Source: Escherichia phage Ec_O157kw. Taken from it: a stretch of 64,000 nucleotides of DNA. Every line of letters begins with the position of its first letter. The first letter of the stretch is position 1. The position numbers and the translations under genes were made by a program. The stretch lies in the sequence record PV857777.1. One strand, given 5' to 3'. The notes below the pieces were generated by a model. The model worked only from the letters and a program-made list of their open reading frames with translations. It ran no database searches and was not told where the DNA came from. This document shows, in pieces, positions 2,412-2,774 of this stretch.

Positions 2412-2774
2412 ATGAAAGCATATCAAATTCTTGAAGGCACACATAAAGGTACTATTTATTTTGAAGATGGTATTCAAGCACGAATTATTGTTTCTAAAAC
2501 CTTTAAAGAGGACTCTTTTGTAGACCCAGAAATTTTCTACGGTTTGCACACCCGTGAAATTGAAATTGAATCACAGCCTACAGTTAAAATTGAAGGTGGT
2601 CAACACCTGAACGTAAACGTTCTGCGTCGTGAAACTCTGGAAGATGCAGTTAAGCATCCGGAAAAATATCCGCAGCTGACCATCCGTGTATCCGGATATG
2701 CAGTTCGCTTTAACTCTCTGACTCCGGAACAGCAGCGCGATGTTATCGCTCGTACCTTTACTGAGAGTTTGTAA
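2412..2774 (+). CDS. Autonomous glycyl-radical cofactor (GrcA/YfiD-like; T4 Y06I-type)
   Basis: 120 aa; C-terminal ~60 aa ([60 protein letters not shown]) carry the RVSGY glycyl-radical motif and match E. coli GrcA as I remember it; 3' half is GC-rich with host-like codons. Confidence 0.85.

Follow-up and report, generated by a model that had tools for sequence, protein, structure and literature searches.

The window, that is, the whole 64-kb stretch of DNA analysed here, is a segment of a Tequatrovirus genome, and its region from 1800 to 3400 is 97–98% identical to many T4-like coliphages. The genes of this region are arranged in the order e, denV, an internal-protein gene, vs.8, vs.7, vs.6, vs.5, vs.4, vs.3, regB, vs.1, vs and tk.4. 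The order matches that of T4 (NC_000866), except that T4 carries ipII and ipIII between e and denV. The homologues of vs.7, vs.5 and regB belong to the families phrog_2049, phrog_1986 and phrog_1323, respectively. The gene under study, vs.6, sits among genes without an assigned function, both on the T4 map and according to the phrog matches in the window. The upstream vs.7-homologue reading frame ends at 2405, and the stop codon of vs.6 overlaps the ATG of vs.5 (2774–2776). The features of the gene are collected in Table 1.

Table 1. Features of the vs.6 gene in the 64-kb window.
Feature	Position	Strand	Basis or remark
Coding sequence of the Vs.6/Y06I orthologue (phage GrcA-like autonomous glycyl-radical cofactor), 120 aa	2412–2774	+	ORF list
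Shine-Dalgarno sequence GAGG	2404–2407	+	Sequence; 4 nt 5′ of the ATG, overlapping the stop codon of the vs.7 homologue
AT-rich 5′ part of vs.6	2412–2589	+	GC 0.33, GC3 0.20; without E. coli nucleotide match
Putative host-derived gene-conversion patch, corresponding to E. coli grcA nt 200–374	2590–2764	+	173/175 identical; encodes the structured glycyl-radical domain
Codon of the predicted radical-bearing glycine, Gly95 (RVSGY motif)	2694–2696	+	GrcA alignment, offset of 7 residues
Retained phage-type 3′ end, GAG AGT TTG TAA	2765–2774	+	E. coli has GAA AGC CTG TAA

The product of vs.6 shares 117 of its 120 residues (97.5%) with T4 Vs.6, named Y06I in Swiss-Prot, and differs from it by three amino acids (T47A, S54P and R73H in T4). 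The T4 gene (NC_000866, 63557–63919), which is annotated as GrcA in that record, likewise encodes 120 amino acids and has vs.7 upstream and vs.5 downstream within the denV–regB block. The family phrog_1209 aligns with the whole of the window protein (E 8.7e-63, covering 1–120 of 121), and this match together with the position between vs.7 and vs.5 in the denV–regB block places it in the T4 Vs.6 group. The Pfam model Gly_radical (PF01228) is matched at amino acids 60–101 with 67.1 bits against a cutoff of 22.2, in a small stand-alone protein. The best match in the PDB is E. coli GrcA (6owr, E 9e-42), followed by the C-terminus of pyruvate formate-lyase (PFL; 1h16). The RVSGY motif and the PFL-type C-terminal helix are both present, and the C-terminus is identical to residues 68–127 of E. 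coli GrcA. In the alignment, which is offset by 7 residues, Gly95 is equivalent to Gly102 of GrcA and Gly734 of PflB. With the GrcA equivalog model of NCBIfam, TIGR04365, the protein scores 154.8 bits, below the cutoff of 170, while E. coli GrcA scores 233.9; the shortfall arises because the N-terminal half has diverged. On the grounds of sequence and gene position, the gene is the Tequatrovirus orthologue of T4 vs.6 (Y06I), a phage-encoded GrcA. The earlier note on this DNA, made from the sequence alone, had recognised a GrcA-like protein and counterpart of T4 Y06I, and the distance of three amino acids from T4 Vs.6 and the shared synteny bear this out. Vs.6/Y06I as such is already known: it is annotated as GrcA in phage genomes by the hundreds, the vs.6 region is matched by 800 phage records, and a biochemical characterisation of T4 Y06I exists.

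The window protein has the same two-part layout as E. coli GrcA (YfiD; 6OWR), namely a variable N-terminal half and a structured glycyl-radical domain, and its C-terminal 60 amino acids are 100% identical to those of GrcA, with 97% identity at the nucleotide level. It differs from GrcA in being 7 residues shorter and in having an N-terminal half that is AT-rich and only remotely related. The location of the genes also differs, since vs.6 lies in a phage early-region cluster and E. coli grcA in the ung–grcA–eamB locus. A similar relation exists to PflB (1H16/2PFL), to whose residues 697–759 amino acids 58–120 of the window protein align (E 4e-26). This C-terminal domain of PflB is the part that is lost or displaced on cleavage by oxygen and replaced by GrcA.

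The composition of vs.6 changes within the gene. The 5′ 180 nt have a GC content of 0.33 (GC3 0.20) and the 3′ 183 nt a GC content of 0.48 (GC3 0.41). In E. coli grcA the GC content is 0.48–0.49 and GC3 is 0.43, with both halves alike. The 3′ half uses CTG five times, CGT or CGC six times and CCG three times; the 5′ half contains no CTG, has CGA and CGT once each, and encodes leucine by CTT and TTG. No other 173-nt stretch of the 64 kb has a higher GC content than the one starting at 2590 (GC 0.486): just 0.02% of all 173-nt windows reach this value, and nearly all of them overlap the host-like stretch.

The 3′ half is matched by E. coli grcA at the nucleotide level. In a blastn search of 5,426 complete E. 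coli genomes, grcA was matched in all 5,426 with 96–97% identity (E 2e-81), and the matches were confined to nt 179–363 of the gene (2590–2774 in the window). The pairwise comparison with grcA revealed 5 mismatches in 185 nt, all of them synonymous, and over 100 consecutive bases without a difference. On the 5′ side of 2590, resemblance to grcA is near random, and E. coli-like identity begins abruptly at TTGAAGGTGG. Within 2590–2764, referred to below as the patch, 173 of 175 nucleotides are identical to the E. coli grcA allele L001; the two differences are synonymous, one of them being the third base of the Gly95 codon (GGA vs GGT). The patch has a dS of 0.05 against E. coli, and the next-best host genus, Citrobacter, reaches merely 90% identity. 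When the whole 64-kb window was compared with E. coli by megablast, only the patch gave matches, including weaker ones to pflB and tdcE. Both pflB and tdcE were considered as donors and rejected, as their nucleotide identity to the patch is only 76–79% (about 79% for pflB), vs 97% for grcA. The donor gene, which lies between ung and eamB in E. coli and adjoins ung in K. pneumoniae, has an even GC content. The stretch shows the marks of a gene-conversion tract: near-identity that extends to synonymous sites, ends that are abrupt, and no similarity on either side. The earlier note had described the shift in GC content and the CTG, CGT and CCG codons, and both are confirmed; the alignment with grcA and the GC scan that it proposed as checks turned out in its favour, with 96–97% identity in every E. 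coli genome and with the window's GC maximum inside an uneven gene. It had placed the boundary at about 2580; the sharp junction exists, and its real position is 2590.

The host-like stretch does not reach the end of the gene. The codons GAG AGT and a phage-type leucine codon close the reading frame, and they are common to Mosigvirus, Pseudotevenvirus KPN-12i and the unclassified Klebsiella phage p4515. As these last three codons are of phage type, the host-like stretch is regarded as an internal conversion tract covering 2590–2764. No E. coli homology was detected past the vs.6 stop codon. The 5′ part of the gene follows phage taxonomy, with a nucleotide identity of 96% to T4, 87% to Mosigvirus, 74–77% to Jiaoda- and Karamviruses, and 61% to the most distant of the compared Klebsiella T4-like phages, p4515 and Pseudotevenvirus KPN-12i. 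The alignments to GrcA obtained by BLASTP and TIGR04365 begin at amino acids 20–22, and BLASTP of the N-terminal half against E. coli GrcA gives 14/40 identities. The N-terminal half of the window protein alone has no match in NCBIfam (the Karamvirus N-terminal half gives E 0.012), and homology was therefore sought by profile–profile comparison. An hhalign comparison of 8 phage N-terminal halves with 10 host GrcA N-terminal halves yielded a probability of 94.6% and an E value of 7e-8 over 59 collinear columns. The phage N-terminal half is hence a putative remote homologue of the GrcA N-terminal half. Taken at the level of sequence, the host-like DNA is a gene-conversion patch within a pre-existing phage grcA homologue, and neither a fusion nor a plain 3′ capture. 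The suggestion that the 3′ portion of the gene had been captured from the host holds as far as its recent E. coli origin is concerned, given the 96–97% identity and the sharp junction; it fails for the end of the gene, since the tract is internal and the 3′ terminus is of phage type. The picture of a phage 5′ half joined to a captured host 3′ half does not hold, because the N-terminal half itself appears remotely GrcA-like and AT-rich full-length relatives exist.

A comparison of E. coli grcA with phage records gave 751 matches, 636 of them with at least 95% identity, in Tequatro- and Mosigviruses. Among the matches listed, nearly all E. coli-type records start at grcA nt 200. The T4 gene has an E. 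coli-type patch with the same 5′ junction as in the window, and differs from the window at grcA nt 225, where the window has A (as in the L001-type allele) and T4 has T (as in the L173- and K-12-type alleles), and at codon 118, which is GAG in the window and GAA in T4. The T4 substitution R73H (L002; CGT to CAT) is a non-synonymous change inside the patch and is absent from the other ten Tequatro- and Mosigvirus copies examined.

A patch is found in the same place in the Jiaodavirus UTI-K4, a phage of Klebsiella. This patch has a GC3 of 0.59 and is 96–97% identical to K. pneumoniae grcA, vs 86–87% to E. coli grcA. Its 5′ junction is the same as in the E. coli-type patches, and its 3′ end lies near nt 163. 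At 90% identity or more, K. pneumoniae grcA matches 134 records of Klebsiella phages. By its sequence the Jiaodavirus patch is best taken as an independent event with a different donor, K. pneumoniae. The phage vB_Kpn_AM_K2 (174 kb) was considered as a second genus of Klebsiella phages with a patch; it also proved to be a Jiaodavirus and adds no further event.

The patches are also variable in a way that resembles the variation of the host gene. In the five E. coli alleles compared, the patch region varies at grcA nt 225 (A/T), 240 (T/C) and 303 (C/A/T), and the same three sites vary with identical bases among 11 phage copies. Four haplotypes are shared: the L001 type is present in the window and in Shfl2, the L173 type in T4 and most other copies, the L174 type in L095, and the K-12 type in L094. 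At 171/171 nucleotides, the phage copies of Shfl2, L093 and L097 agree with E. coli alleles that exist today, and the 3′ ends of the tracts vary from phage to phage. Between Tequatro- and Mosigviruses, dS amounts to 0.40–0.50 in the N-terminal half and to 0.02–0.21 in the patch; between the window and Shfl2, within Tequatrovirus, the values are 0.29 and 0.05, respectively. These data, which come from three polymorphic sites compared between 11 phage sequences and 5 from hosts, are suggestive of repeated conversion from different E. coli alleles. Parallel third-position mutation or exchange of one patch between phages could explain part of the shared haplotypes, and some conversions could date from laboratory propagation, as in the case of L094 with its K-12 haplotype.

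The pattern might alternatively go back to a single E. coli conversion in the ancestor shared by Tequatro- and Mosigviruses, with a further one in Jiaodavirus, followed by spread between phages and drift, with no ongoing exchange with the host. T-even phages recombine freely with each other, the grcA nt 200 junction is common to nearly all E. coli-type records among the matches listed, and most differences from E. coli are private third-position changes towards A/T, all of which speak for such a course. The shared junction would be expected regardless of the number of events, because similarity ends there, and the independent Klebsiella event has the same junction. The recurrence of four E. 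coli haplotypes among the phages, the three copies that are fully identical to extant alleles and the varying 3′ ends argue against a single conversion, and we consider it improbable.

GrcA homologues without a host-like patch are found in related phages. The Karamvirus copy is full-length and AT-rich, has nearly the same C-terminal domain and a GC3 of 0.26, and among 82 host grcA genes finds none to which its identity exceeds 79%. The counterpart of the patch in Karamvirus has a dS of about 2 and a dN of 0.06 against E. coli. The domain is conserved here at a dS of about 2; thus, constraint on the amino acid sequence alone does not preserve synonymous sites. The p4515 copy differs from Klebsiella-type grcA by 29–31 synonymous and 0 non-synonymous changes. 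No host match of at least 90% was obtained for the Karamvirus, p4515, Pseudotevenvirus KPN-12i, Krischvirus and T5-like copies. GrcA-like genes occur in 1,486 phage records and extend beyond the T-even phages to T5-like Tequintaviruses, Krischvirus and jumbo phages such as RaK2. The genes outside the T-even group (loci L086, L087 and L118) have a phage N-terminus of the MKAYQ... type or variants of it and contain no host-identical patch. Metagenomic T4-like contigs with Pasteurellaceae-like residues (L110–L115 and L122) were considered as further cases and set aside, as they are 79–86% identical to any host and so carry no recent patch.

These relatives bear on a second alternative, in which the complete grcA gene was captured from a host once, in ancient times, and its 5′ part drifted while purifying selection, acting also on codons, kept the 3′ part host-like. 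Such an origin would agree with the C-terminal 60 amino acids being almost invariant across phage and host homologues and with the apparent remote homology of the N-terminal half to GrcA. Against it stand phages that encode the same amino acids with 20–30 synonymous differences from any host, among them the Karamvirus and p4515 copies described above. The junction is abrupt to one base, the patch is of the species that now serves as host, either E. coli or K. pneumoniae, and in the same pairs of phages dS is 3–20 times lower in the patch than in the N-terminal half. A single ancient capture is thus very improbable. The one-off capture implied in the earlier note is contradicted by the K. pneumoniae-type segment of the Klebsiella phages and by the several E. 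coli alleles that were apparently involved.

We therefore return to repeated conversion. It is likely that gene conversion from the chromosome of the bacterium into the strictly virulent T-even phages is still going on, that it is specific to the host species and that vs.6 is a natural hotspot for it. The glycyl-radical domain would thereby be renewed again and again from the grcA allele that the phage lineage encounters, E. coli alleles in the case of Tequatro- and Mosigviruses and that of K. pneumoniae in the case of Jiaodaviruses. The correspondence between patch and isolation host is not complete. Tequatro- and Mosigvirus-type phages reported on Yersinia, Citrobacter, Serratia, Salmonella and ‘Pseudomonas’ (PV654520) have an E. 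coli-type patch with 96–98% identity, which suggests either E. coli as their main natural host or doubtful host labels. A megablast search of 50,697 phage records with S. enterica grcA for a Salmonella-type patch gave no match above 84%. With E. coli-type patches on other isolation hosts and no Salmonella-type patch, conversion appears to be too infrequent to track every isolation host. A third, Yersinia-type patch seemed to be present in the IMG/VR contig L120 (91% identity to Yersinia grcA), and was rejected; the gene has the N-terminus MITGIQITKA... and is a bacterial grcA on a contig filed as viral. The IMG/VR entries L120 and L160–L171 carry a bacterial grcA (L120) or full-length C-termini of pflB and are probably host regions or prophage flanks, not phage homologues. 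Similarly, the entry L091 (CP125156.1), listed in PLSDB as ‘plasmid unnamed2’, is a 5.37-Mb K. pneumoniae replicon with the chromosomal ung–grcA arrangement and evidently a chromosome. Several multi-Mb E. coli ‘plasmids’ of PLSDB are also in the match list.

With regard to function, T4 Y06I and E. coli YfiD are reported to be activated by the PFL-activating enzyme (PFL-AE) and to rescue PFL cleaved by oxygen, for T4 Y06I in one biochemical study (Wagner et al. 2001, as cited in PMC8683613); the restoration of oxygen-damaged PFL by T4 Y06I, which the earlier note mentioned, has thus been reported. Residues 1–60 of YfiD are disordered and act in the binding of cPFL and in the efficiency of activation, whereas residues 61–127 are structured and adopt the same fold as PFL 693–759 (PMC8683613). 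The boundary between disordered and structured residues lies 6–7 codons upstream of the patch junction. The radical on Gly102 of GrcA passes to Cys419 of PflB (PMC12338860). By analogy, the C-terminal domain of the window protein would mimic residues ~693–759 of the host PFL, and the host PflA would install a glycyl radical on Gly95. The radical-bearing protein would then dock into oxygen-cleaved PFL and restore its activity. The benefit for the phage may consist in sustained fermentative production of acetyl-CoA and ATP during infection, and the phage presumably supplies the spare part because T4 shuts down the expression of host genes, so that the synthesis of host PflB and GrcA stops after infection. 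The presence of the anaerobic reductase NrdD in the window fits a life in the gut at low oxygen. That Vs.6 might serve as a spare glycyl-radical part for this NrdD, as had also been proposed, is almost certainly wrong: NrdD is encoded in the same window (20050–21867), is an oxygen-sensitive glycyl-radical enzyme (Gly580 in T4 NrdD), and spare parts for other glycyl-radical enzymes are a matter of speculation in PMC8683613, but BLASTP between the two proteins gives a best E value of 2.6, their glycyl loops do not align, the NrdD motif RRTCGYLG is followed by a different C-terminus, the patch copies the domain that matches PFL residues 697–759, and identity to host GrcA suits a partner such as the host PFL and PflA, unlike the phage NrdD and NrdG. 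It is highly probable that the gene is the Vs.6/Y06I phage GrcA for the rescue of PFL, with a domain that is recurrently and host-specifically overwritten from the host grcA.

We propose the following route to the present gene. The T-even phages have an old, AT-rich, full-length grcA homologue, in which the stretch 2590–2764 was overwritten by E. coli grcA in the lineage of the window. The patch may have been formed by the T4 recombination machinery, which would join replicating phage DNA with fragments of host DNA in a homologous event of the gene-conversion type. The limits of the tract would correspond to the limits of usable nucleotide similarity, the 5′ limit lying at the conserved GTTGAAGGTGG (EGGQH) motif and the 3′ limit just before the stop codon. 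The 5′ junction would be fixed because pairing is no longer possible in the disordered half, which evolves fast and has become too divergent. The conversion would be recurrent and host-specific, not a single capture. A comparable case is known from psbA of cyanophages, a metabolic gene of virulent T4-like phages that exchanges internal segments with its host homologue and so acquires host-like patches. The case of vs.6 differs from it in the gene, the hosts and the ecosystem, and in that the tract stays within one structural domain and has one fixed 5′ junction.

The gene itself is not new, and the value of the analysis lies in the evolutionary detail of recurrent conversion from host to phage. 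A strictly lytic phage that destroys the DNA of its host carries a 175-nt stretch up to 100% identical to alleles of the living host, and in the phages of Klebsiella the equivalent stretch is Klebsiella-like. No description of the vs.6 patch or of its host-specific recurrence was found in the searchable literature, and older T4 papers may well have noted the identity to yfiD. If vs.6 is indeed a conversion hotspot, a gene of a lytic phage and its counterpart in the host would be evolving in concert. The gene would also preserve a record of the hosts met recently, and it would offer a natural and measurable indicator of how T4 recombines with degraded host DNA. Provided that conversion recurs, vs.6 would be a natural system for determining the rate of recombination between virulent phages and host DNA. 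It could also serve for testing what determines tract boundaries; the limit appears to be set by nucleotide similarity, near the boundary between the disordered and structured parts of GrcA. A single amplicon would then be sufficient to read the recent host history of a T-even phage. The pattern further supports a domain that needs to match the host PFL and PflA, which fits PFL rescue as the function, and it is relevant where spare parts are to be designed for other enzymes of the glycyl-radical type.

Several minor observations concern the neighbourhood of the gene. A scan of 400–3700 for promoters and terminators gave counts equal to the expectation from shuffled sequence, and no element could be assigned. 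The internal-protein locus is rearranged compared with T4. The lysozyme gene e (44–445) is followed after 59 nt by denV (505–921), ipIII and ipII of T4 being missing there, and a gene for a 157-aa internal virion protein (931–1404; phrog_3155, E 1e-101) is placed after denV. The start of this protein, MKTYQEFITEA, is presumably that of the T4 internal-protein capsid-targeting sequence. At amino acids 61–161, the vs.8 homologue (1483–2079; phrog_1488) weakly resembles the family of large terminase subunits (phrog_2, E 2.9e-6), and it contains a P-loop-like GGRQSGKS motif. The name ‘terminase large subunit’, given to this homologue in some GenBank records, probably claims too much for a small ATPase-like protein. 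At the 3′ end of vs.6, the phage-type GAG AG just upstream of vs.5 is a weak candidate for the vs.5 ribosome-binding site, because T4 has GAA there. The stop codon of vs.6 and the start codon of vs.5 overlap in the sequence TAATG (2772–2776), which suggests translational coupling of the two genes.
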